From the UHGV virus genome UHGV-1355725: a stretch of 44,514 nucleotides of DNA. The stretch is one strand, 5' to 3'. The translations under genes and the position numbers were made by a program. The DNA is from a virus. The notes beneath the pieces were generated by a model, which saw only the letters and a list, made by a program, of their open reading frames with translations, was not told the DNA's origin and did not search any database. This document shows, in pieces, positions 8,656 to 41,202 of this stretch (position 1 is its first letter; every line of letters begins with the position of its first letter).

Positions 8656-8687
8656 TTGCGCACCCCAATATAATAGGGTACTATTCA
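8656..8687 (+). promoter_or_regulatory. class-1 promoter with embedded inverted-repeat operator
   Basis: TTGCGC (8656-8661), 17-bp spacer, TACTAT (8679-8684); inverted repeat AATAG-GGTA-CTATT at 8672-8685; followed by RBS AAGGAG and ATG 8715. Confidence 0.5.
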
Positions 8688-8944: not shown

Positions 8945-10084
8945 ATGGCCCAGAAGAAAATAACCGACGAACAGTTACAGGAAGAATTGAACGCCGGGAT
9001 GAAGAATGTAGACATCGCCCGTAAATACGGCATCTCAGACCGCGTTATTCGTATCCGTAAAGCAAAACTAGCTAAGAAAGGCGTAGGTCATGGGCGTGAC
9101 GTTAGTCACCTTGTGCCAGATGGCTACAAGATTAAGGGCACGTCGTCACTTGTGGACGAGTTCGGCAACACTAAGTTGCAATGGGTTAAGACCGACACCG
9201 ACGCCGAACGTCAGGTTGAATTGATGAAAGCCGTAGTTGAAGGCATGAAGTCAGAGATTACGCCGGTTGCGCCTGTTAAAGCGACTCGCGCCAAACGCAA
9301 CGATAAACTACTCAATCTTTACACGGTATCTGATTTTCATCTCGGTATGCTGGCATGGGCCGACGAGAGCGGCGACGACTGGGATATGAAGATTGCGGAA
9401 GACCTGTTCTCCCGTTGGTTTGATGCTGCATTTCAGAAAGCGCCTGATGCGGGAACAGGAGTTATTAACCTGCTTGGAGACTTCGCGCACTTCGATAGTC
9501 TTGATGCCGTTACCCCTGAGTCGCGTCATGTGTTAGACGCCGATACTCGCTATCAGAAACTAGTTCGCTACATGATTCGTATGGTGCGTCGTGTTGTTGA
9601 TATGGCGCTTGTTAAACATCACACAGTCAAACTCTTAATAGTTCAAGGTAACCACGACCCTGTAGGCTCTGTATGGCTCGCCGAAATGTTCTGTACATTG
9701 TACGATAACGAACCTCGCGTATTTGTGGACACCTCCCCCGACGTATACAAGATGGTCCAGCACGGGAAAACTACGCTATTCATGCATCACGGACACCGTG
9801 CGAGATTCGACGCCATAGAGTCAGTAATGATTTCTAAATTCCGTAAGGCTTTTGGAGAAAGCACATACAGCTACGCTCATGTAGGGCATCTACATCATCA
9901 GAAATTAGTAGAAAGCCGCAATATGGTAGTCGAACAACACCGAACCCTGGCCGCGAAAGATGCTTACGCATCGCGAGGGGGCTGGATGTCCGGTCGTAGT
10001 GCTAACGTGATAACTTATAGCGCCGAATATGGGGAGGTGGCGCGCCTCACAATATCACCTGAAATGATAGGAGGTATAAATTGA
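8945..10084 (+). CDS. HTH domain fused to calcineurin-like metallophosphoesterase
   Basis: 379 aa; N-terminal HTH-like segment (VDIARKYGISDRVIRIRKAK); C-terminal metallophosphoesterase motifs DFHLG, GDFAHFD, GNHD, HHGH, GHLHH; RBS GAGGAAG before ATG 8945. Confidence 0.6.
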   Translation: MAQKKITDEQLQEELNAGMKNVDIARKYGISDRVIRIRKAKLAKKGVGHGRDVSHLVPDGYKIKGTSSLVDEFGNTKLQWVKTDTDAERQVELMKAVVEGMKSEITPVAPVKATRAKRNDKLLNLYTVSDFHLGMLAWADESGDDWDMKIAEDLFSRWFDAAFQKAPDAGTGVINLLGDFAHFDSLDAVTPESRHVLDADTRYQKLVRYMIRMVRRVVDMALVKHHTVKLLIVQGNHDPVGSVWLAEMFCTLYDNEPRVFVDTSPDVYKMVQHGKTTLFMHHGHRARFDAIESVMISKFRKAFGESTYSYAHVGHLHHQKLVESRNMVVEQHRTLAAKDAYASRGGWMSGRSANVITYSAEYGEVARLTISPEMIGGIN

Positions 10085-10554
10085 CATGGAATGACGTTTA
10101 CGAATACGAAAACGGGAATCTTTACGCTAAGAGCAGCGTAAACCCTAAGTACCCGAAAGGACGTAAAGTAGGGTACGTTGACCACCGCGGATATGTAAGA
10201 ACTAAACTAGGATCAAAAATGACATTCGCCCACAGAATTATATGGGAAATGTTTAACGGAGCTATACCAGAAGGCAAGGAGATTGACCATATAAACGGTG
10301 TGAAAAGCGATAACCGTATAGAGAATCTTCGACTGTGCGACCGGCACATAAACTGCAAAAATGCAGCAAAGCGCAGGGATAACTCGTCTGGTGTTACCGG
10401 GGTTAGTAAAACATACAACGGTAAATGGGTCGTTCAAATTCAATATAACGGGAATAGAATAGCCAAGCGTTTCGACCAAAAAGAAGACGCCGTAAGATAT
10501 GCAGAATGTTTTTACAAAGAAAAGAAAGACTTTACTGAGAGGCACGGAAAATGA
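10081..10554 (+). CDS. HNH homing endonuclease (HNH plus AP2-like DNA-binding domain)
   Basis: Motifs HRIIWEMFNG...IDHINGVKSDNRIENLRL (HNH) and GVTGVSKTYNGKWVVQIQYNG...F (AP2-like); TTG start overlapping the upstream stop (TTGA), RBS AGGAGG. Confidence 0.8.
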   Translation: MTWNDVYEYENGNLYAKSSVNPKYPKGRKVGYVDHRGYVRTKLGSKMTFAHRIIWEMFNGAIPEGKEIDHINGVKSDNRIENLRLCDRHINCKNAAKRRDNSSGVTGVSKTYNGKWVVQIQYNGNRIAKRFDQKEDAVRYAECFYKEKKDFTERHGK

Positions 10555-17369: not shown

Positions 17370-17620
17370 GTTTCTCCTTTCTCGATAAGTAAAGCCCCGC
17401 CATAAAGCGGGGCGCTAGTCCTTATCATTTAAACATAGAAACGGCGTAATCTCAGTAAACCCGTTACTTTTTACACAAGCAATAGAGTATGGCCCTTCCG
17501 AACGCGTCAGCGTAACTACACTCAGGACTTACGTCCCGCTCCGTTACCTGCCCGCGCCGCGGTCGCTTGTTCATGCTTCACAAGCTCAGGTGGAGCTTAG
17601 CATATTTTCAGTGAAAAGTC

Positions 17621-17636
17621 AACTATTCGAATAGTT
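17621..17636. repeat. 16-bp perfect palindrome AACTATTCGAATAGTT
   Basis: Exact self-complementary 16-mer in the non-coding region upstream of the spanin genes; contains CTATT/AATAG half-sites in inverted order relative to the operator motif. Confidence 0.9.
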
Positions 17637-17688
17637 TATTCCAACATTTACAATTCATAAGAATAACTGGAATAGGTAAATAAATAGT

Positions 17689-17720
17689 TTGCAGACACCA
17701 ATATAATAGGGTACTATTCA
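17689..17720 (+). promoter_or_regulatory. class-1 promoter with embedded inverted-repeat operator
   Basis: TTGCAG (17689-17694), 17-bp spacer, TACTAT (17712-17717); inverted repeat AATAG-GGTA-CTATT 17705-17718; RBS AGGAGG and ATG 17745 follow. Confidence 0.5.
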
Positions 17721-18008: not shown

Positions 18009-18468
18009 ATTCTGGCTTAGTGACCTTCGCCGCTTTGCTTACCACCTCTACACCATCGGCATCGGTAACTTTAACGAAGTATTCACCCGCCGCGTTAACC
18101 GTCAGAGACAAAGCCTCTTCCGGGGCGTTGACTACTTCCTTACCGTCTTTGTACCAGGTCAGCACATATGGCGCTTTGCCCGCCTTAACTTCAACAGTGA
18201 TAGTTGCGCTGCCGTCTGCTGGTTCGACGTCTTTCGGTTGCACCGAGAAGTACACGTCACCCGCGTCCGCCAGATACGGAATCTCATAAAGCATACCCGC
18301 CGCCGGGAGCGCAATACCGGTTTTATCCGCAAACGGCATATCGTCTACCGGTGTACCTAGTACACTTTCATCTTCGATAAATACCACATTCTCGCTAGAG
18401 CCAGACACGCGGGCGTACTGGACTACGCGACGAGAAGGTACATCAGTTACTTTGAAAAAGCCCATCAT
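18007..18468 (-). CDS. Ig-like domain structural protein
   Basis: 153 aa; C-terminal Ig-like segment (ATITVEVKAGKAPYVLTWYKDGKEV...GEYFVKVTDADG); coupled to the head morphogenesis gene. Confidence 0.45.
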   Translation of the reverse strand: MMGFFKVTDVPSRRVVQYARVSGSSENVVFIEDESVLGTPVDDMPFADKTGIALPAAGMLYEIPYLADAGDVYFSVQPKDVEPADGSATITVEVKAGKAPYVLTWYKDGKEVVNAPEEALSLTVNAAGEYFVKVTDADGVEVVSKAAKVTKPE

Positions 18469-20405
18469 TATTCCCCTTTCAGATAATCAGCAACACGTCT
18501 ATCGAGTTCCGCCATCTGCTTAAGCGTGAGCGGATTCCCGAAACCATCTACAGATATTACGCGAAACTCTTCCGGCGATATACCGCTGTTGCGGAAAATC
18601 TTACCCCGCACCGGGCCTAACGCCTGGTCCTGAAACCATGCAGGTTGTTGTTTAAGGAACTCGTAATAAGTGGTGTCCGCACTTACCTGAGTTCCGCCAT
18701 CTGCACCCTTAGCCGCGCGTTTTGCGCCTTTATCCAGGAAGTCGAACTCTGAACTGATTACAGGTGCCGTGGTACTTCGGCAGCCAAAATGGGCTGGGGG
18801 CATTGGCCCTTTACCAATCTCCCACGTCATTCCGTCTCTGGCCCTGCAATTCTTGACTATCGCACTACCTGCTGTATAATATCCTTGACTACTAGAGAGG
18901 GTATAAACATGGCACGTTCTAAACTCGACGCTTATGCGGATGATATTTGTTCTTTGTACCGAGATGGCACTCCCGCCAGCATCATAGCCAAGAATTACGG
19001 CGTCACTACCACCACGGTAACAACATTTCTCAAGAAGCTCGGACTCATGCATGATCGACCCCGTGGTTGGGTTTCTAACGACACCATTTTGAATCAAAAA
19101 AGGGCTATAGAATTGTTCGAGTCCGGCGTCCCGCCTATTGAGTGCATAAGAAGGACCCAAGTCAGCAAAACAGTTTTCTATTCTATGGTCAAAACACTTG
19201 GCCTCGCTAAGCGCGGGCACACTCACAGGACATTCACCCCGGAGGAGAAAATCGCCAGAGCTATCGTCCGACAGCAAAGCGGCGCTATGAATAAGACTGA
19301 AACCATCGCTTTTGAATTGTTTAATTCCGCTGGCGTGGACGTAGTTCCGCAGTTTGCAATCGGCCCGTACAATGTCGATTTTGCCATTGAGTCCCACTCC
19401 ATCGCCATAGAAATCTGTTGCCGCGGGACTCGTGCTTACCATTTTCCTGATGGGGAAATCAGCGAGCGTATTAAAAATATAATCCGCTCTGGCTGGCATG
19501 TTTATGTTCTTCACTGTTTCGAGCACAGTCACTTTGTCAACAGTGGTATACAAGACATGCTTAGTTGGATCGAGTTCATCAAGCGGAGTCCATCCGTATT
19601 GCGTGAGTACAGGGTGTTTCGGGGTGCCACTGAACTTCTCGCCGTTGGAAAGTTCGATGGTAAAGATTTTTCCTGAATAGAGTCCGCGCATTACCGCGTC
19701 CATCCCCGCGATGGGCGCTAATTCTGTTTCAGCCGTGAAACACGTTGTACTGGTACGGCTGTCCAATGTTGATACCCACTCATATTTCTCGATGATGTCG
19801 TCGTTCTGGCGGTACGTCTCGTTACGTGCTTCATTGGACACGTGAGACAGCGCGGTGCGGATTACAGTAGCCGCGTTACGTTCAGAGATGTCAGCCAGTC
19901 CGCCAGCGCCTACAACACTTTTAACAATCTGCCGCGTAGTTTGGCCTTGTACGAAGCCCATCTTAACGCCAGTTACCAGGCGCGCGACTTCTGTTTCACC
20001 CCAACCTGACATCAGCTTGGTGAAGTCAACAGGCTTGTCGCTCAGTGAGAGCGGCTGAAACTCGGCGGCGGCCCACACCTGTTCTGCGGTAGGTGTAACA
20101 AATTCCGCGTTAACGTTGGCGGTCAGTGTCTTTACGTTCCACTCAGCCTCATACTTCGCCAATTCCTTAAGGTCTTCTGTCAGCTTTGTTTGCCAGTCAC
20201 CTGTAAGCCAGGTTAGCGCTTCTTCAAGGTTGAGTAACAGTTTATTCAGTCGCGCAGTGCTCCGCCCGTCGTCGCCGAATAACAGCACCTGCCGTTTGAT
20301 TTCGTCCCGCATTTCCTGAATGAACGGTGCAAGGTCTTTCACTTCTCCGGAAGCGGTTCGTTGCAGCCATATCTGGTGGCTGATTAAGGATGTAAGTAAG
20401 CTCAT
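18468..20405 (-). CDS. head morphogenesis protein (SPP1 gp7 / Mu F-like) interrupted by an intein
   Basis: ATG 20405 with RBS AGGAGG; F-like motifs WVSTLDSRTSTT (before the intein) and GKGPMPPAHFGCRS (after); 298-aa insertion with intein signatures between them; located just after the portal gene. Confidence 0.7.
   Translation of the reverse strand: MSLLTSLISHQIWLQRTASGEVKDLAPFIQEMRDEIKRQVLLFGDDGRSTARLNKLLLNLEEALTWLTGDWQTKLTEDLKELAKYEAEWNVKTLTANVNAEFVTPTAEQVWAAAEFQPLSLSDKPVDFTKLMSGWGETEVARLVTGVKMGFVQGQTTRQIVKSVVGAGGLADISERNAATVIRTALSHVSNEARNETYRQNDDIIEKYEWVSTLDSRTSTTCFTAETELAPIAGMDAVMRGLYSGKIFTIELSNGEKFSGTPKHPVLTQYGWTPLDELDPTKHVLYTTVDKVTVLETVKNINMPARADYIFNTLADFPIRKMVSTSPAATDFYGDGVGLNGKIDIVRADCKLRNYVHASGIKQFKSDGFSLIHSAALLSDDSSGDFLLRGECPVSVPALSEAKCFDHRIENCFADLGPSYALNRRDAGLEQFYSPFLIQNGVVRNPTTGSIMHESELLEKCCYRGGSDAVILGYDAGGSAISVQRTNIIRISVEFRTCHVYTLSSSQGYYTAGSAIVKNCRARDGMTWEIGKGPMPPAHFGCRSTTAPVISSEFDFLDKGAKRAAKGADGGTQVSADTTYYEFLKQQPAWFQDQALGPVRGKIFRNSGISPEEFRVISVDGFGNPLTLKQMAELDRRVADYLKGE
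18853..18880 (+). promoter_or_regulatory. near-consensus sigma70-type promoter inside the intein, antisense to the head morphogenesis gene
   Basis: TTGACT (18853-18858), 16-bp spacer, TATAAT (18875-18880); RBS GAGAGGG and ATG 18909 follow. Confidence 0.5.
18909..19676 (+). CDS. nested antisense gene: HTH domains plus DUF559/Vsr-like (PD-(D/E)xK-type) endonuclease domain, candidate homing endonuclease
   Basis: 255 aa from ATG 18909; two HTH-like segments (IIAKNYGVTTTTVTTFLKKLGL; IECIRRTQVSKTVFYSMVKTLGL); C-terminal YNVDFAIESHSIAIEI...RSGWHVYVL resembling Vsr/DUF559 endonucleases; lies entirely within the intein on the opposite strand. Confidence 0.55.
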   Translation: MARSKLDAYADDICSLYRDGTPASIIAKNYGVTTTTVTTFLKKLGLMHDRPRGWVSNDTILNQKRAIELFESGVPPIECIRRTQVSKTVFYSMVKTLGLAKRGHTHRTFTPEEKIARAIVRQQSGAMNKTETIAFELFNSAGVDVVPQFAIGPYNVDFAIESHSIAIEICCRGTRAYHFPDGEISERIKNIIRSGWHVYVLHCFEHSHFVNSGIQDMLSWIEFIKRSPSVLREYRVFRGATELLAVGKFDGKDFS

Positions 20406-20448
20406 AGGCCCTCCTGTAGTATCGACAGTGTAACGCATAAAAATAATA

Positions 20449-20481
20449 TTTGCAGACACCAATATAATAGGGTACTATTCA
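20449..20481 (+). promoter_or_regulatory. class-1 promoter with embedded inverted-repeat operator
   Basis: TTGCAG (20449-20454), 17-bp spacer, TACTAT (20473-20478); inverted repeat AATAG-GGTA-CTATT 20466-20479; 40-nt block identical to the copy at 17689. Confidence 0.5.
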
Positions 20482-25955: not shown

Positions 25956-25984
25956 AATATAGTAGGGTCATAGATAATAGTCAA
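25956..25984 (-). promoter_or_regulatory. sigma70-type promoter (minus strand)
   Basis: On the minus strand TTGACT, 17-bp spacer, TATATT; the spacer carries a degenerate copy of the class-1 core (TAGGGTCATAG). Confidence 0.35.
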
Positions 25985-26003
25985 CTAGTCATTACCGAAA
26001 ATA

Positions 26004-28751: not shown

Positions 28752-28784
28752 ATGAATAGTATCCTATTATATCTTAGCGTGCAA
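28752..28784 (-). promoter_or_regulatory. class-1 promoter with embedded inverted-repeat operator (minus strand)
   Basis: Minus strand TTGCAC (rc of 28779-28784), 17-bp spacer, TACTAT (rc of 28756-28761); inverted repeat AATAG-TATC-CTATT 28755-28768. Confidence 0.5.
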
Positions 28785-29087
28785 GTAAATTTTATTGGTG
28801 TTTTAAAGATAGTCGTTCACCGCGAATCCAGTAGTACCTCGGGCGTCGCGCCCACTGACGCCAGCGCATAACACGGTACTTGTTGCCGTCTGACGCAACA
28901 ACAAGCCCAAATCGCTTTTCCCCGTTCCTACTGGTCCAGGTTACGATGTCATTCAGTTTCATTGTTGCGTCCCCTGCAATAGTCGCTTCGATTGTTGCGT
29001 TTGGTGAAATAGAATAAAAATGAGAAAAATGATACGCTGCTGTGTAGCAGCGTAAGTCACAAAGCCAAATAGTAACCTATTGACCTG

Positions 29088-30231: not shown

Positions 30232-30264
30232 GTGAATAGTAACCTATTATGTTGGGGTGTGCAA
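30232..30264 (-). promoter_or_regulatory. class-1 promoter with embedded inverted-repeat operator (minus strand)
   Basis: Minus strand TTGCAC (rc of 30259-30264), 17-bp spacer, TACTAT (rc of 30236-30241); inverted repeat AATAG-TAAC-CTATT 30235-30248. Confidence 0.5.
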
Positions 30265-30306
30265 GAGAATAGTTACGTTGCCGTTGTGATTCTTTCGTTT
30301 CTTAAA

Positions 30307-30362
30307 AGAGTACGCAACGCAGTGGGTGGGCGTCAGCCCACCCCAGCGGAGTGAAGTACTCT
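30307..30362. repeat. nested inverted repeat / structured element in the early intergenic region
   Basis: Outer arms AGAGTAC (30307-30313) and GTACTCT (30356-30362) enclose the hairpin GGGTGGGC-gtca-GCCCACCC (30324-30343). Confidence 0.6.
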
Positions 30363-30639
30363 CTACCTTGCCCACGGCAACTATAGAAACTTTTAATTAT
30401 CAGGTACTTAAGAGATATGCCGCCGGTGTGAATAGAGCTTGCCCAGGGCAACCGGAGATACTAAGGAAGGAAAGTTACGATAATTCATTTGTTCAGTAAT
30501 CTGCCGCTTAACACTTCGCTTGCGCTGGTGCGCCGCTGCGTTTCAAGCGGGTATTACAAGGTGAACAGGAATCAAAGTAACTAAGATATATAAGCACCTT
30601 AAACGAAGATTTTCATAATGTCAATAGGTACGATTATGT

Positions 30640-30668
30640 TTGATTTCCCATTATTCGCAATGTATACT
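30640..30668 (+). promoter_or_regulatory. sigma70-type promoter for the rightward early operon
   Basis: TTGATT (30640-30645), 17-bp spacer, TATACT (30663-30668); ATG 30701 follows. Confidence 0.45.
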
Positions 30669-30700
30669 CAGTTTCGTTAACTGATAATGAGGGTTTGAGA

Positions 30701-30853
30701 ATGGTTACTTTGACAGAAGAGCGGTTGAAAGAGTTGCTGGTAGAAGCGTGGTTTAACGGACATAACGAGCGCAGATACTGCCCCAATAAATACGGCACAG
30801 CTACAGCGTTTGCGCGGGAAACAATTAAGGAGATTAAAGATGACACAGAATGA
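30701..30853 (+). CDS. small hypothetical protein
   Basis: 50-aa ORF with RBS GAGGG; first ORF of the rightward operon. Confidence 0.35.
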   Translation: MVTLTEERLKELLVEAWFNGHNERRYCPNKYGTATAFARETIKEIKDDTE

Positions 30854-31010
30854 AGTAGCTGAGCGTATCGGGGTTACTCGCCGCACGCTGAATAACTGGT
30901 TAAAGAGTGGGAAGTTCCCGGATTGTTGTATTCGCATTATGGGCCGTCGGCAGCCAGGTACGTTTGACCCGGAGAAAGTGGAAGCGTGGATTAAGGAGAA
31001 TGTAAAATGA
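30840..31010 (+). CDS. small HTH DNA-binding protein
   Basis: 56 aa, MTQNEVAERIGVTRRTLNNWLKSGKFP HTH-like. Confidence 0.45.
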   Translation: MTQNEVAERIGVTRRTLNNWLKSGKFPDCCIRIMGRRQPGTFDPEKVEAWIKENVK

Positions 31011-33565: not shown

Positions 33566-33704
33566 ACGCCGAACAGTTAATTGCAGAGTTGAAGCAGTGC
33601 GAACAGGATAACGACGGCCAATTTATTGTTTCTGAGGATTTAATCTGCGGTCTTGTTTCGTTTCTTGAAAATCTGCCGAAGGTGATAGTAGAGGGGTAAA
33701 AAGA

Positions 33705-33723
33705 AAGGGGCGTTAAGCCCCTT
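33705..33723. terminator. hairpin terminator between convergent genes
   Basis: GGGGC-gttaa-GCCCC with T-run on the minus strand; overlaps the stop codon of the XRE gene. Confidence 0.4.
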
Positions 33724-33928
33724 CACCGAACGCCAGCCACTTGGCGTCTACTTGCAGCACTTTAGCCAGTTTAAACAGCGTAGCCGGGCGGACGTCCTGA
33801 GTTACACCGAGTGCCAGCTGGTTAATCGCGCCCTGGGAAACGCCGGTCAGCACCGCCAGACGGCGCTGAGAGAGGCCGAGTTCTTTACGGCGTTGTTCTA
33901 CGCGGATGCCTAGTTCAGATGGTTGCAT
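33713..33928 (-). CDS. XRE-family (Cro/C1-type) HTH transcriptional regulator
   Basis: 71 aa; LGLSQRRLAVLTGVSQGAINQLALG HTH; RBS AAGGAG; divergent from the rightward operon with operator-bearing promoters in the intergenic region. Confidence 0.8.
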   Translation of the reverse strand: MQPSELGIRVEQRRKELGLSQRRLAVLTGVSQGAINQLALGVTQDVRPATLFKLAKVLQVDAKWLAFGEGA

Positions 33929-33956
33929 GTCAATTACTCCTTAGTCAGTTGATATG

Positions 33957-33990
33957 TGAATAGTACCATATTAATTATTTTAGAAAAGCC
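33957..33990 (-). promoter_or_regulatory. class-1-like promoter/operator for the regulator gene
   Basis: Minus strand TACTAT (rc of 33960-33965) with imperfect repeat AATAG-TACC-ATATT (33959-33972); weak -35 (CTTTTC). Confidence 0.4.
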
Positions 33991-33992
33991 CA

Positions 33993-34022
33993 TTGACAAC
34001 ATGAATAGTTAGCTATTATAGT
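33993..34022 (+). promoter_or_regulatory. class-2 promoter with embedded inverted-repeat operator
   Basis: TTGACA (33993-33998), 18-bp spacer, TATAGT (34017-34022); inverted repeat AATAG-TTAG-CTATT 34004-34017. Confidence 0.55.
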
Positions 34023-34054
34023 TAGCCCATACCAAACGAGAGGAGAGAAACAAA

Positions 34055-34516
34055 ATGTTAGAGAAATTCTTAGTATTACTGGAACGTTTCGTAGTTGCGC
34101 ATGAACTGATTGCCGCGAATAGTGCGAAACAAGTTGTCGTTGCTGAAACCGCAACAATCGAGCCTACTGTTGCAGCAAAAGAAATCCCGGTCGAAGGTGA
34201 AGACATCGTTGACACTAAACCAGCAGAAGAAGAGAAGCCGAAACGCAAGCCGCGTAAAGCTAAAGTAGAGGAACCGACGCCAGAGCCGGAAGAAGAGAAA
34301 GAAGAGGTCGATTATAAGTCTCTGCGTGACCAGATTCAGGCTATTGACGATGCGATTAACGAAGGTCCTAGCGATGCCGCGTGCGATGATTCCGATGAAC
34401 TGCTGGAAGAGTTCACCGGCAAGAAGATGAAGATTGCTGCGATTAAAGACGAAGACCTGGCTGAGTACCTGGAACGCCTGACAGCAATCAAGAACAAGTA
34501 TTTCGAAGAAGAATAA
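34055..34516 (+). CDS. acidic hypothetical protein
   Basis: 153 aa, Glu/Asp/Pro/Lys-rich, low complexity; RBS GAGAGGAG; first gene after the class-2 promoter. Confidence 0.5.
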   Translation: MLEKFLVLLERFVVAHELIAANSAKQVVVAETATIEPTVAAKEIPVEGEDIVDTKPAEEEKPKRKPRKAKVEEPTPEPEEEKEEVDYKSLRDQIQAIDDAINEGPSDAACDDSDELLEEFTGKKMKIAAIKDEDLAEYLERLTAIKNKYFEEE

Positions 34517-36545: not shown

Positions 36546-36574
36546 TTGACACCTGAATAGTTAGCTATTATAGT
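36546..36574 (+). promoter_or_regulatory. class-2 promoter with embedded inverted-repeat operator
   Basis: TTGACA (36546-36551), 17-bp spacer, TATAGT (36569-36574); inverted repeat AATAG-TTAG-CTATT 36556-36569, identical core to the copy at 34004. Confidence 0.55.
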
Positions 36575-37298: not shown

Positions 37299-37466
37299 CT
37301 AAGGGTCGAAAATCATGTTTTTCTGTAAGCACGTATACCGATATATGAAACCGCTTCCGTGGTACGCGGATGAGTACCGCGCCGGGTACAGGCATGTGTG
37401 GATTTGCCGTGATTGTATGAAAATAAGACTCAGCGAAACGAAGGCAATGGATTTAAGGAAAAAGAA

Positions 37467-40400
37467 ATGAGCTACTTATACCTGGACTTTGAAACATTCT
37501 CCGAAGCCGATTTAAAGAAAGTCGGCTCCTACGCTTACGCCGAACACCCGTCAACCGAAGTTCTTATCTGTACATACGCTTTTGACGACGAGCCTGTACA
37601 GGTATGGGACTGCACAGACGGCAGCGACATGCCTGGGGATTTGCACCGCGCACTACGCCGTCTGGTGAAACCAAACAGCCGCATTAAGATGGTGTGGCAT
37701 AACGGCTCAATGTTCGATCGCCTCATCATGAAACACTGCTGGGGCTTTGATATTCCGGTAAGTAACACCATTGATACGATGATTTGGGCGTTTCGTCACG
37801 CGCTGCCGGGTTCACTTGACGCATTGTGTGAAGTGCTGGGCGTGTCCGCAGATAACGCGAAAGACAAACGTGGCAAGGCGCTGATTCAGCGTTTCTCTAA
37901 ACCTACACCGAAGAACTACAAAATCCGCCGCTACACCGCCGAAACACACCCGGACGAGTGGGCGCTGTTCATCAAGTACGCCGTGAGTGACATCACTGCG
38001 ATGCGCGAAGTATTCCATAAGCTGCCTCGTTGGGGTAACTCAGAGTTTGAAGACCGTGTACTGGAACTGGACCAGTTAATTAACGACCGCGGGTTTAAGG
38101 TTGACGTCGCACTGGCGGAAGCCGCGATCGAAGCCGTGGAGAAGCACAAGACACAGTTACAGGAAGAAGCCCAACGCAAATACGGCGGCTCGCTTACTGG
38201 TAAAGACTTCCTCCCTATTCTGCGTGAACTCGCCCCAGCGCACCGCATCCACAATGCGCAGAAGTCTACGCTGAATGACCTGCTGGCAGACGACGATTTA
38301 CCGGACGACGCCCGCGCGATTATAGAAATGCGCCTCGGGGCCGCGTCCACCGCGTCAACGAAATATAACCCATTGCTATTAGGCCGCTCATCGGACGACC
38401 GTCGCCGCGGTTGTTTACAGTACGGCGGGGCAAAACGTACCCTGCGATGGGCGGGTAAAGGCTTCCAGCCGCAGAACCTGGCGCGCGGTTACTATCACGA
38501 TGATGAACTGGATAAAGGCATTTCTGCGCTACTTAAGGGCCGTGCGCATCGCCGTTTTGATGTAGCCAAGCTAACGGCATCGACGGTGCGTAGCTGCATC
38601 ATACCGGAAGCCGGATATAAGTTTGTCGTCGCCGATTACTCTAACGTTGAAGGCCGCGGGCTTGCGTGGCTGGCGGGCGAAGAAACCGCGCTTGATACGT
38701 TCCGCGCCGGACTGGATATTTACTGTGTAACCGCAGGTAAGATGTTCGGCATGGACCCCGACGATATTAAGAAAGAACGTAAAGACTTGCGCCAGATTGG
38801 TAAAGCGTGCCTTCACCGTCATACCCTAGTTTTGACCGATGGCGGATTTAAGGATATTATGGCGGTTACATCAACAGATAAAGTATGGAGCGGTGAAAAA
38901 TGGGTGAATACAAAAGGCGCGCACCTTATGGGGTGGAAACCGGTAATAAATGTGGACGGGGTGCTAATGACCGAAGACCACAAAATCTTGGCGCATTCCT
39001 GGAAGCAGGCAAAGCAACTCGCTTCAAACAGATATATGATGGGCCTCGCCCTGGAGAGAGGTATGGACGCCTGGTTATCCTGCGCGAGTTACCAAAACGA
39101 CAAGGCCAAAGACAACTACTCGTCCAATGTGATTGCGGAGAGATGCCGTGGCGGGTCTATTACGACAATGTCAGAGCGGGTAAAACCACTCAATGCAACC
39201 GCTGCGCCCTTGAAGCAACAAAAAAATATCGTAAACAGTATTTCTGCTACGAAGACGCAATGCCGGATGATGCGCACAGAACAAGATTACTCAACCGGCT
39301 GTCCGCGGCGATCACGCGAACAACAAGCCCCAGGAATAAGGGTTATAAAAACTATGGTGCCAGGGGCATCACGGTATTCGACCAGTGGAGGACTGATAAA
39401 AGGTCGTTTCTTGGATATGTTCAAACTCTGGAAGGCTGGGACGACCCAAACCTCGAAATGGATAGAATCGACACAGACGGTAACTACGAACCTGGAAACA
39501 TTCGGTTTGTCAGCCGTTCTGAAAACTGCCGAAACAGACGGCAAATACCCGAGCTTCAACGAAAGTATGATGCAGCCGTTGCCCGCATTGCTGAACTTGA
39601 ACGGGAAATTAGCCTATTGCGAGCCGGTGTACGACCTGATTGATGTGGAAGACGGCAACCGTTTTCTTATAGCCTCAGACTCTGGCTTTCTTGTGGCGCA
39701 TAACTGCGAGCTTGGCCTCGGCTATGAGGGGGGTGTCGGTGCTTTCGTTACGTTTGCTAAAAACTTAGGTCTTGACCTTATCGAGATGGCAAAAACAATG
39801 GACGGTACTTTCCCGGGCCACATATGGGCAGCTACCGCACGCGGTTATGAGTGGGCGCGTATCCAGGAAGCAAAGCGACCGCCGCAGCCCGGCGAAAAGG
39901 ACGACCGACCGTCGTATATTTTGGACAAGAAAGTGTGGCGCACATGCGACGCGATCAAGCGTATGTGGCGCGAGTCACACCCGGAAACAGTAGCGTTCTG
40001 GCGCGACCTTAAAGACGGAATTTTAGCCGCTGTGCGTAATCCAGGTCGTGAATTTTGGGCGGGGGCACACTTGCGCAGGAATGGGGAAAGGGCAATCCGC
40101 ATATGGCGTACTGTAGAATTTGATTCATCCGGTAGGAAGGTTCCTGGTTGGTGGTTATGCATGGAGTTGCCGTCAGGCCGCATCCTCTCGTATCCGGGAA
40201 TCGGCGTTAGTGTGACAAAGGAAACAGACGAAGACGGACGGGTAAACACGAATGTGCGAATCAAGTATCAGGGGGAAAACCAGTTAACCCGCCAATGGAC
40301 CACCCTGTACACACACGGCGGCAAGGCCTGCGAAAACATTGTTCAGGCGCTGTGCCGCGATTTACTTGCCTATGCGATGATTAACGTTGAGGGTGGTGGG

Positions 40401-40565
40401 TATCCCATCGTGCTTTCTGTACACGATGAATTGGTATGCGAAACTCCAGATACGCAGGAATACAACGTGGCTGAACTGGAAAAATTAATGTGCGCGTTGC
40501 CGGAATGGGCAGAAGGCTTCCCTCTTGTAGCGGAAGGTGCGGAGATGAAGCGTTATGCTAAGTAA
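37467..40565 (+). CDS. family A DNA polymerase with 3'-5' exonuclease domain, interrupted by an intein
   Basis: Exo motif YLDFETFS, motif A VVADYSNVEGRGLAWL, motif C VLSVHDELV; ATG 37467 with RBS AAGGAA; a 299-aa insertion splits motif B (RQIGKA / CELGLGYEGG). Confidence 0.85.
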   Translation: MSYLYLDFETFSEADLKKVGSYAYAEHPSTEVLICTYAFDDEPVQVWDCTDGSDMPGDLHRALRRLVKPNSRIKMVWHNGSMFDRLIMKHCWGFDIPVSNTIDTMIWAFRHALPGSLDALCEVLGVSADNAKDKRGKALIQRFSKPTPKNYKIRRYTAETHPDEWALFIKYAVSDITAMREVFHKLPRWGNSEFEDRVLELDQLINDRGFKVDVALAEAAIEAVEKHKTQLQEEAQRKYGGSLTGKDFLPILRELAPAHRIHNAQKSTLNDLLADDDLPDDARAIIEMRLGAASTASTKYNPLLLGRSSDDRRRGCLQYGGAKRTLRWAGKGFQPQNLARGYYHDDELDKGISALLKGRAHRRFDVAKLTASTVRSCIIPEAGYKFVVADYSNVEGRGLAWLAGEETALDTFRAGLDIYCVTAGKMFGMDPDDIKKERKDLRQIGKACLHRHTLVLTDGGFKDIMAVTSTDKVWSGEKWVNTKGAHLMGWKPVINVDGVLMTEDHKILAHSWKQAKQLASNRYMMGLALERGMDAWLSCASYQNDKAKDNYSSNVIAERCRGGSITTMSERVKPLNATAAPLKQQKNIVNSISATKTQCRMMRTEQDYSTGCPRRSREQQAPGIRVIKTMVPGASRYSTSGGLIKGRFLDMFKLWKAGTTQTSKWIESTQTVTTNLETFGLSAVLKTAETDGKYPSFNESMMQPLPALLNLNGKLAYCEPVYDLIDVEDGNRFLIASDSGFLVAHNCELGLGYEGGVGAFVTFAKNLGLDLIEMAKTMDGTFPGHIWAATARGYEWARIQEAKRPPQPGEKDDRPSYILDKKVWRTCDAIKRMWRESHPETVAFWRDLKDGILAAVRNPGREFWAGAHLRRNGERAIRIWRTVEFDSSGRKVPGWWLCMELPSGRILSYPGIGVSVTKETDEDGRVNTNVRIKYQGENQLTRQWTTLYTHGGKACENIVQALCRDLLAYAMINVEGGGYPIVLSVHDELVCETPDTQEYNVAELEKLMCALPEWAEGFPLVAEGAEMKRYAK
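38808..39704 (+). mobile_element. intein in the DNA polymerase
   Basis: Begins CLHRHTLVLTDGG, block-B-like GVLMTEDHKILAHSW, ends VYDLIDVEDGNRFLIASDSGFLVAHN followed by extein Cys; the central part of the host frame is open but compositionally non-protein-like. Confidence 0.65.
38900..39643 (+). CDS. HNH-family endonuclease encoded in an alternative frame inside the polymerase intein
   Basis: Codon phase offset by one nucleotide from the polymerase; motifs RYGRLVILREL, CDCGEMPWRVYYDNVRAGKTTQCNRC, YKNYGARGITV, IDTDGNYEPGNIRFVSRSENCRNR; ATG 38900 preceded by GGAG/GGTGA; exact start uncertain. Confidence 0.6.
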   Translation: MGEYKRRAPYGVETGNKCGRGANDRRPQNLGAFLEAGKATRFKQIYDGPRPGERYGRLVILRELPKRQGQRQLLVQCDCGEMPWRVYYDNVRAGKTTQCNRCALEATKKYRKQYFCYEDAMPDDAHRTRLLNRLSAAITRTTSPRNKGYKNYGARGITVFDQWRTDKRSFLGYVQTLEGWDDPNLEMDRIDTDGNYEPGNIRFVSRSENCRNRRQIPELQRKYDAAVARIAELEREISLLRAGVRPD

Positions 40566-40917: not shown

Positions 40918-41202
40918 ATGACCCCGGAAGGCAAAATACAGAAATACGCAAAAGAGCGATTCGAGGCCCTTGGGGGCCTCGTACGCAAATTGTCGTACGA
41001 AAATAGAGCAGGAGCGCCCGACCTGCTGGTAATTCTCCCCCGCGGCATCGTCTGGTTCGTCGAGGTTAAGAAAGACGAAAATACGAAGCCTGACCCGCAC
41101 CAGCTACGGGAACACGAGCGGATGCGTAAACGTGGTGCGAATGTTTTTGTCGTTGGTTCGTTTAAACAGGTTGACGACCTAATAGCGAGCTATTATAGTT
41201 AA
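40918..41202 (+). CDS. VRR-NUC domain nuclease
   Basis: Motif GAPDLLVILPRGIVWFVEVKKDEN...QLREHE typical of VRR-NUC. Confidence 0.6.
   Translation: MTPEGKIQKYAKERFEALGGLVRKLSYENRAGAPDLLVILPRGIVWFVEVKKDENTKPDPHQLREHERMRKRGANVFVVGSFKQVDDLIASYYS
41171..41199 (+). promoter_or_regulatory. class-2 promoter with embedded inverted-repeat operator
   Basis: TTGACG (41171-41176), 17-bp spacer, TATAGT (41194-41199); inverted repeat AATAG-CGAG-CTATT 41181-41194; lies within the 3' end of the VRR-NUC gene. Confidence 0.5.

Follow-up and report, generated by a model that had tools for sequence, protein, structure and literature searches.

Here we describe a genome-wide set of candidate operators in UHGV-1355725, a viral genome sequence of 44,514 nucleotides (the window, hereafter), and the gene for a 71-residue XRE-family protein that faces the replication/recombination operon across a 126-bp divergent region. 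A Cro-like dimer of this XRE protein probably represses most promoters of the phage, and more weakly its own, by way of a 14-bp dyad of the form AATAG-N4-CTATT; it is from the sites and the protein together that we infer binding, repression and a hierarchy of affinities. The 126-bp region would thus be one node of an operator set that extends over the genome and takes in the probable late promoter. An earlier note on the region, drawn up from the letters of the DNA, had suggested that the regulator may time early/middle transcription in a lytic phage, and the reading as a regulator of transcription in an essentially lytic phage is supported.

The dyad is real and under selection. Allowing up to one mismatch, AATAG-N4-CTATT is found 14 times in the window as against 1.09 times expected, and none of 100 shuffles reached 14. 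Nine of these copies are perfect (chance expectation roughly estimated at about 0.05), and all nine are intergenic or lie at gene boundaries. When all palindromes made of two 5-bp arms separated by 0–8 bp were counted, AATAG-N4 came first with nine copies, the runner-up having three. The nine perfect dyads and three imperfect ones associated with promoters span positions 8.6 kb to 41.2 kb.

The window was assigned to Kagunavirus (Guernseyvirinae), a group of Escherichia coli phages. The 3-kb stretch around the divergent region shares about 91% identity with Escherichia phages K1ind2/3, K1G and K1H and with many other Kagunavirus genomes, and is more distantly related to several hundred Salmonella Jerseyvirus genomes. 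Gene content was checked against the annotated phage fFiEco02, a 94–96%-similar relative to which 81% of the window can be aligned, in identical gene order. Structural, lysis and small genes are on the minus strand. The plus strand carries the primase-helicase operon and the replication/recombination operon (exonuclease, single-stranded-DNA-binding/annealing protein, DNA polymerase and SNF2 helicase), and a few plus-strand genes lie antisense inside the structural module.

On this map the dyads coincide with sigma-70 promoters in three registers. Class 1 promoters (TTGCAx-N17-TACTAT) carry the dyad over the -10 (about -19 to -6); they are found at 8672, 17705 and 20466 on the plus strand and at 28755 and 30235 on the minus strand, with the promoter of the XRE gene (P_xre) as a degenerate member. 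In class 2 promoters (TTGACA-N17/18-TATAGT; 34004, 36556 and 41181) the dyad falls entirely in the spacer (about -25 to -12). Nine sites and these two classes had already been mentioned in the earlier note, and alignment of the sites bears both out. A third arrangement (class 3), absent from that note, consists of minus-strand TTGACT-N17-TAnnnT promoters with a one-mismatch dyad over the -35 (25976 and 17614). Outside the 126-bp region the sites are as follows.

8672–8685, plus strand: perfect dyad over the -10 of a class 1 promoter for plus-strand genes (a small open reading frame (ORF), a metallophosphoesterase and an HNH gene) antisense in the structural module.
17614–17627, minus strand: one-mismatch dyad AATAG-TTGA-CTTTT (minus-strand reading) over the -35 of TTGACT-N17-TAAGCT, in the same register as the dyad at 25976.
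17705–17718, plus strand: perfect dyad over the -10 of the class 1 promoter of a plus-strand gene that lies within the structural module.
20466–20479, plus strand: perfect dyad over the -10 of another class 1 promoter, again of a plus-strand gene within the structural module.
25976–25989, minus strand: one-mismatch dyad ACTAG-TTGA-CTATT (minus-strand reading) over the -35 of TTGACT-N17-TATATT (promoter 25984–25956).
28755–28768, minus strand: perfect dyad over the -10 of the second leftward class 1 promoter.
29068–29081, minus strand: orphan perfect dyad with a -10 and no -35, just upstream of a leftward terminator (29054–29033).
30235–30248, minus strand: perfect dyad over the -10 of the class 1 promoter TTGCAC-N17-TACTAT of a leftward small-gene operon.
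36556–36569, plus strand: perfect dyad in the second class 2 promoter, TTGACA-N17-TATAGT (36546–36574; sigma-70 score 11/12).
41181–41194, plus strand: perfect dyad in the third class 2 promoter, TTGACG-N17-TATAGT (41171–41199; 10/12), before the SNF2 helicase gene.

The promoter at 36546–36574 lies upstream of the genes for the single-stranded-DNA-binding/annealing protein and DNA polymerase. That at 25976 is probably the late promoter, because it comes after a terminator and upstream of small genes, terminase and structural genes. Its dyad keeps one consensus half in both genera, the ACTAG-type half-site being the left one in Kagunavirus and the right one in Jerseyvirus (AATAG-TTGA-CTAGT; statistics for the latter genus are from IMG/VR loci L064–L075, plus a motif search of phage Ent2, L002). 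The orphan dyad at 29068 is present in only seven of the related loci, and the promoter of the HTH_17/primase operon (30640–30668) has no dyad. A 7-2-7 palindrome, AACTATT-CG-AATAGTT (17614–17640), in which the half-sites stand tail-to-tail, adjoins the class 3 promoter upstream of 17705.

Conservation was followed in 37 Kagunavirus loci from IMG/VR (L005–L041), which with the window make 38 copies; retrieval was nearly complete, at 29–38 of the 38 copies per site. At six orthologous sites in the 37 loci, 8 of 2040 half-site cells (0.4%) are non-consensus, compared with 68 of 614 central cells not shared with a -10 (11%), so that by this indicative count the half-sites vary about 28-fold less than the centre. 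The stretch from the -35 to the dyad is also variable and contains a 1-nt indel. Sigma-70 polymerase makes no base-specific demands on the promoter spacer, which is where both class 2 half-sites and the distal class 1 half-site fall. Conservation within the spacer, together with the three registers, looks like the pattern expected of a site for a dimeric DNA-binding protein. Given that the dyad is placed on the -10, the spacer or the -35, recognition by polymerase alone is not the explanation.

The divergent region itself, conserved in 117 phage records (at least 80% coverage) and in the 37 IMG/VR loci, contains two dyads, each on its own promoter, and is flanked by the following elements.

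33704–33724, minus strand: intrinsic-terminator-like hairpin with T-run at the end of the XRE transcript (picked up by a terminator scan on the minus strand only).
33713–33928, minus strand: gene for the 71-residue single-domain HTH_3 (XRE/434-Cro-like) protein, the proposed dyad-binding repressor.
33929–34054: divergent intergenic region, 126 bp, with P_xre leftward and P_rep, the promoter of the replication/recombination operon, rightward.
33959–33972, minus strand: imperfect dyad over P_xre, AATAT-GGTA-CTATT (minus-strand reading), one mismatch.
33993–34022, plus strand: P_rep, class 2 sigma-70 promoter TTGACA-N18-TATAGT, 11/12 consensus.
34004–34017: perfect dyad AATAG-TTAG-CTATT (AATAGTTAGCTATT) in the P_rep spacer (about -25 to -12).
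34055–34516, plus strand: first ORF of the rightward operon, 153 residues, phrog_3127 (function not assigned).

The gap is bounded by the ATG of the minus-strand XRE ORF and by that of the plus-strand ORF at 34055, and these ends confirm the layout given in the earlier note. The same is true of its minus-strand element, which it described as class-1-like with the half-site AATAT and a weak -35. This sequence, 33959–33972, reads AATAGTACCATATT (AATATGGTACTATT on the minus strand); the -10 of P_xre, TACTAT (33965–33960), lies inside it, and the poor -35, TTTTCT (33987–33982), is 16 nt away. With TG at 33968–33967, the G-to-T change in the half-site yields, on our reading, TGnTACTAT, an extended -10, which would explain how P_xre could work without a real -35. 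AATAT is invariant in 38 of 38 Kagunavirus copies, and just one central position varies. The imperfections at P_xre and at the late promoter thus both appear to be selected.

P_rep, by comparison, is one of the two top matches to the sigma-70 consensus (11/12) in a 20-kb scan. Some relatives have a spacer shorter by 1 nt (N17); the indel falls between the -35 and the dyad, and the 17/18-nt spacing to TATAGT is kept. Across the 38 copies the half-sites of the P_rep dyad are invariant, and the centre is TTAG, TTCG, TTCA, TTTG, CTCG or CTAG. The -35 regions of the two promoters are about 5 bp apart, and their dyads 45 bp apart, centre to centre. The note's perfect operator in a plus-strand class 2 promoter 45 bp away is therefore found where it was placed, and its two operator copies stand as two copies of a dyad that, judged by its conservation and position, behaves like an operator. 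Cooperative binding to the two dyads was considered and found unsupported: their spacing is 45 or 44 bp (about 4.2–4.3 helical turns), and the 1-nt indel between them is tolerated. No Pfam domain and no DNA-binding domain was found in the 34055–34516 product. The slot from 34055 onward is mosaic, with at least six unrelated N-termini behind the same promoter and ribosome-binding site in loci L005–L041 (for example, proteins beginning ATGTTAGAG, ATGACCAATAACC, ATGAACATAATC, ATGGCTAAACG, GTGGATGTTAAAG and ATGAAGTTCAG).

The XRE protein is, by sequence and predicted fold, a member of the 434-Cro-like HTH_3 group. It matches Pfam HTH_3 at 49.1 bits (cut-off 23; E = 5.6e-13) and HTH_31 at 33.5 bits (cut-off 27). 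Its best sequence match in the PDB is 434 Cro, which also has 71 residues (E = 1e-6; residues 6–68 against 4–64 of 434 Cro). An AF2 model (predicted local distance difference test score 83) has five helices, at residues 5–17, 21–28, 32–39, 48–58 and 62–67. The top Foldseek match of the model is 2cro (template-modelling (TM) score 0.78/0.85, 38–40% identity), and other top matches are the 434 repressor, SinR and P22 c2. Profile and structure comparison revealed no C-terminal oligomerisation or cleavage domain in the 71 residues, and the protein is a single domain of Cro size. In the lambdoid Klebsiella phage GZ7, whose operators are of the 434 type (ACAA-N6-TTGT), the cro position is occupied by a protein that shares 47% identity with the XRE protein.

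The sites fit such a protein. The 14-bp dyads bound by 434 Cro and repressor are contacted at their outer four to five base pairs, with the centre left free, and the outermost adenine is read in 434 by Gln28 at the beginning of the recognition helix. This Gln is conserved between the XRE protein and 434, and the dyad here begins with A; like the 434 operators, the dyads are 14 bp long with conserved outer bases and a free centre and lie on promoter core elements, a correspondence that concerns the sites and not their occupancy. The recognition helix, GVSQGAINQLALG, is invariant in 37 of 38 Kagunavirus copies (the exception, L032, has G33S), and one Kagunavirus-like locus in which the XRE protein is only 78% identical overall keeps both this helix and the dyads.

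From these elements a simple circuit can be proposed. An XRE dimer would bind the 14-bp dyad and occlude the -10, the spacer or the -35, with repression as the outcome in all three registers. The perfect dyad of the strong P_rep would fill first, so that host RNA polymerase would be blocked and the replication/recombination operon turned down; occupancy of the imperfect dyad, which overlaps the -10 of the weak P_xre, would need a higher level of the protein and would give negative autoregulation. As the dyad covers core elements of seven more promoters and, in weakened form, lies on two promoters of the late module, XRE could govern or time phage transcription over the whole genome: it would shut perfect sites before imperfect ones, and the probable late promoters would escape longest through their imperfect sites. 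The class 1 promoters at 8672, 17705 and 20466 oppose the late structural operon, and shutting them would remove head-on transcription. In RNA-seq of the Kagunavirus K1B4, the XRE ortholog (gene 004, of 216 nt, which lies between genes 003 and 005 and is alone on its strand) is transcribed during infection and classed as 'middle', which is compatible with a delayed build-up from a weak promoter, and the HTH_17 ortholog (gene 008) as 'early'. The terminator hairpin of the XRE transcript has no T-run in the plus direction, so that transcripts of the primase operon may continue antisense through the XRE gene; we give this little weight because the arrangement is not conserved in Cornellvirus.

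Comparison among genera bears on which protein reads the dyad. The XRE gene, divergent and beside two dyads, is syntenic in Kagunavirus, Jerseyvirus and Cornellvirus, and all three genera combine an XRE ortholog with a related promoter dyad: AATAG-N4-CTATT in Kagunavirus, TAATAG-N4-CTATTA in Jerseyvirus and TAWTA-N6-TAWTA in Cornellvirus, where seven sites, all intergenic, compare with 0.98 expected. In Cornellvirus PhiSTP1 (L004, 14353–17001) the XRE gene is immediately upstream of the primase-helicase gene and co-directional with it; the slot it takes is the one filled by HTH_17 in Kagunavirus and Jerseyvirus, two genera in which the primase gene has the opposite orientation. The rival candidate in the window is the following gene.

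30840–31010, plus strand: HTH_17 (AlpA/excisionase-like) small DNA-binding protein, first gene of the primase-helicase operon; 56–66 residues (start at 30810 or 30840), with an excisionase/AlpA-type fold.

Several points weigh against the XRE reading. Although the half-site is the same in Kagunavirus and Jerseyvirus, the XRE proteins of the two genera show only about 49% identity and differ in the recognition helix at positions that contact bases in 434 (SQGAINQ versus SQSLITH), whereas the HTH_17 proteins are 87.5% identical; taken alone, this favours HTH_17 as the binder. If there is an operator on every promoter, the late one included, simple repression does not explain late expression, and the affinity hierarchy is an assumption. 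The conservation counts come from related sequences retrieved with up to two mismatches and so are indicative and lean towards conservation, and the K1B4 time course is coarse (sampling at 5–120 min, with 42 of 57 genes 'middle') and cannot resolve regulation at the level of promoters.

The dyads could instead be bound by another phage protein, mainly HTH_17, with XRE limited to its own neighbourhood or to host genes. Only four K1B4 genes are 'early', the HTH_17 ortholog among them, and the promoter of HTH_17 itself is dyad-free, as would fit a regulator expressed first, and Cornellvirus lacks HTH_17 where it also lacks the AATAG-N4-CTATT form. We nevertheless consider this unlikely. Proteins of the HTH_17/excisionase type that are this small usually act on direct repeats as monomeric winged helices, and HTH_17 has no evident element for dimerisation; a 14-bp dyad whose centre varies is, by contrast, the hallmark of HTH_3 dimers of the 434 type. 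Neither tblastn nor a Pfam scan of eight small ORFs around the replication module and the 377-residue phosphoesterase homolog detected HTH_17 in Cornellvirus, a genus that has an XRE protein and, at the corresponding promoter positions, an enrichment of a related dyad, and for this reason we prefer XRE. Covariation within the subfamily is ambiguous, Kagunavirus and Jerseyvirus favouring HTH_17 and Cornellvirus favouring XRE; 23 distant XRE loci (L042–L063 and L076) have different recognition helices and no AATAG dyads and are not informative on this point. A weaker candidate binder is the GerE-like N-terminus of Cornellvirus PhiSTP1_048, a homolog of the window's 379-residue metallophosphoesterase, although this match (E = 0.0027) is below the Pfam cut-off. 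The dyad may also have no dedicated binder and be a shared promoter cassette, duplicated in either orientation, its symmetry then reflecting sequences that resemble a -10 on each strand. Class 1, when reverse-complemented, does resemble class 2 over about 21 bp (AATAG-N4-CTATTATAKT), one class 1 half-site coincides with the -10 TACTAT, and some class 1 copies, such as 17705 and 20466, are near identical over about 50 bp. The low variation of the half-sites that fall in spacers, the three registers and the existence of one copy without any -35 all argue against a cassette, which we regard as very unlikely. An origin of the symmetry in bidirectional promoters was rejected, since the opposite-strand hexamers have no suitably spaced -35. 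On balance we assign the dyad to the XRE protein with moderate confidence, from the comparison of genera.

The earlier note likened the region to a cI/cro-type genetic switch, and in the strict sense this likeness is not supported. There is one HTH_3 regulator, not two antagonistic divergent repressors, the other small HTH gene being 2.7 kb away in a different operon; there are two dyads in place of three tandem graded operators; and the rightward neighbour has no DNA-binding domain. Neither the fFiEco02 annotation nor the large ORFs specific to the window include a CI-type repressor with a C-terminal domain, or genes for integration/excision or plasmid maintenance, which agrees with the note's statement that integrase and partition genes are lacking. 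Its further statement that there is no excisionase stands as far as lysogeny genes go, but HTH_17 does have a fold of that type. A search of 5,426 complete E. coli genomes turned up no prophage copy. A bistable CI/Cro switch, for which partner repressor, operator triplet, integrase, partition genes and E. coli genomic copy are all wanting, was therefore discarded, and the region looks like an ordinary repressor circuit and not a lysis/lysogeny switch. One could still envisage a true immunity-type switch, in which XRE silences the genome in a non-integrated carrier or pseudolysogenic state and is possibly antagonised by HTH_17. Operators on nearly every recognised promoter, those for replication and probable late transcription included, would be in keeping with dispersed-operator immunity repressors. 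The Jerseyvirus SGP-C is reported to form turbid bull's-eye plaques and immune, phage-releasing 'lysogens', possibly with an episome, and the same paper names the orthologs of XRE and HTH_17 Cro-like and cI-like (PMC8790156). In addition, a single PLSDB record, the circular 44,086-bp 'plasmid pC16EC0033-2' from an E. coli blood isolate (CP088689.1; L082), is an entire Kagunavirus genome in which the XRE gene and the switch region are unremarkable, but this could be phage carried over in culture. Against a switch of this kind stand the lack of integrase, partition and CI-type genes and of any copy in the E. coli genomes, the description of the group as strictly lytic (PMC9787291, PMC13216507), and the weakness of P_xre, which has no activating site, so that nothing evident would sustain a repressed state. 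We judge it quite unlikely, the support for pseudolysogeny being anecdotal and its probability low. Slightly less improbable, though still doubtful, is that a lone Cro-sized repressor with graded operators, perfect and imperfect, on every promoter both times the lytic programme and, at a high level, silences the genome in a reversible, non-integrated dormant state.

The repressor circuit that we favour has points in common with several known systems. It resembles 434 Cro in the length and five-helix HTH_3 domain of the protein, in being its best match by sequence and fold, and in the 14-bp dyad with a free centre and the conserved Gln. It differs in the half-site (ACAA in 434, AATAG here), in having no CI partner, tripartite OR or lysogeny genes, and in placing operators on ten or more promoters genome-wide, whereas 434 has two operator regions. 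The XRE gene is, moreover, monocistronic and convergent with the primase operon and not first in an early right operon, Cornellvirus excepted. The dispersed-operator repressors P1 C1, mycobacteriophage L5 gp71 with its 'stoperators', and the phiC31 repressor with its conserved inverted repeats maintain the prophages of temperate phages. Like them, the XRE protein would be a small repressor with many short sites on promoters across the genome, its own included; unlike them, it belongs to another protein family and to a phage for which no prophage or stable episome is evident, and the L5 sites differ further in being asymmetric and in acting also within transcription units. With the restriction-modification controllers C.AhdI and C.BclI it shares its small size and XRE fold (Foldseek TM about 0.73), the presence of dyads on the promoter of the protein's own gene and, potentially, dimer formation and a delay or timing through graded site affinity. 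Two adjacent dyads activate and then repress one operon in the C proteins, whereas the single imperfect dyad on the -10 of P_xre would allow repression only, and the regulon here would be genome-wide.

Part of this system is on record. The SGP-C paper lists a repeat found with PHIRE as a 'phage-specific regulatory element', TAATAGTACCCTATTATGTT, and calls its XRE gene, ORF49, Cro-like (PMC8790156); the element and ORF49 are orthologous to the dyad and the XRE gene of the window. That paper did not tie the element to the protein, left the dyad, the promoter classes and the registers unresolved, and read the phage as temperate (PMC8790156). Repressor or Cro is a widespread annotation of the XRE gene in the records of relatives. 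The literature searched on Kagunavirus and Jerseyvirus promoters or repressors otherwise held statements at the level of genome announcements. In it we found no resolution of the element into a 14-bp dyad or into three registers on three promoter classes, no mention of the conserved imperfect copies at P_xre and the probable late promoter, and neither the 434-Cro identity of the protein nor a link between protein and site. The finding is real and coherent and would not surprise a specialist in phage transcription; its central step, binding, is the one that we infer.

Phages of Kagunavirus and Jerseyvirus are isolated widely and, as strictly lytic phages, are advocated for use in therapy and food biocontrol; yet the XRE gene is labelled 'repressor', 'Cro' or 'DicA' in many GenBank records, and on that ground one paper describes such a phage as temperate. 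If the gene encodes a Cro-type regulator of the phage's own promoters and not half of a lysogeny switch, a recurring question of annotation and safety would be settled. The system would also be a compact one (one 71-residue protein, one 14-bp site, about twelve promoters and three geometries) that could show how a virulent phage relying solely on host sigma-70 polymerase orders its transcription, and it would offer a matched repressor and a promoter set of graded strengths for engineering. Were the dormant-state reading true, 'strictly lytic' therapeutic phages would have a reversible, non-integrated carrier state.

Other features of the window lie outside this operator set. Between the leftward class 1 promoter and the HTH_17/primase operon is a non-coding stretch of about 450 bp (30250–30700) with 25-nt direct repeats at 30367 and 30438 and with hairpins rich in GC (for example, GTGGGTGGGCGTCAGCCCACCCCA); it could be an origin or an RNA element, although an Rfam scan of the whole window, this stretch included, gave zero matches. 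Relative to fFiEco02, an HNH endonuclease gene (10081–10554, plus strand) and several short segments are specific to the window amid conserved modules, a mosaicism typical of the group. The Mu-F-like head morphogenesis protein (18468–20462, minus strand) has 664 residues against 347 in fFiEco02; a window-specific insertion at about 18853–19746 has a weak Intein_splicing match (E = 4e-4, below cut-off) and may be a second intein. The first is suggested by the DNA polymerase ORF (37413–40565, plus strand), which encodes 1050 residues against 733 in fFiEco02: its insert has intein-like boundaries (…GKA/CLHRH … VAHN/CELG…, the slash marking the junction), and the annotation of Jerseyvirus Ent2 places an intein in the same DNA polymerase gene.

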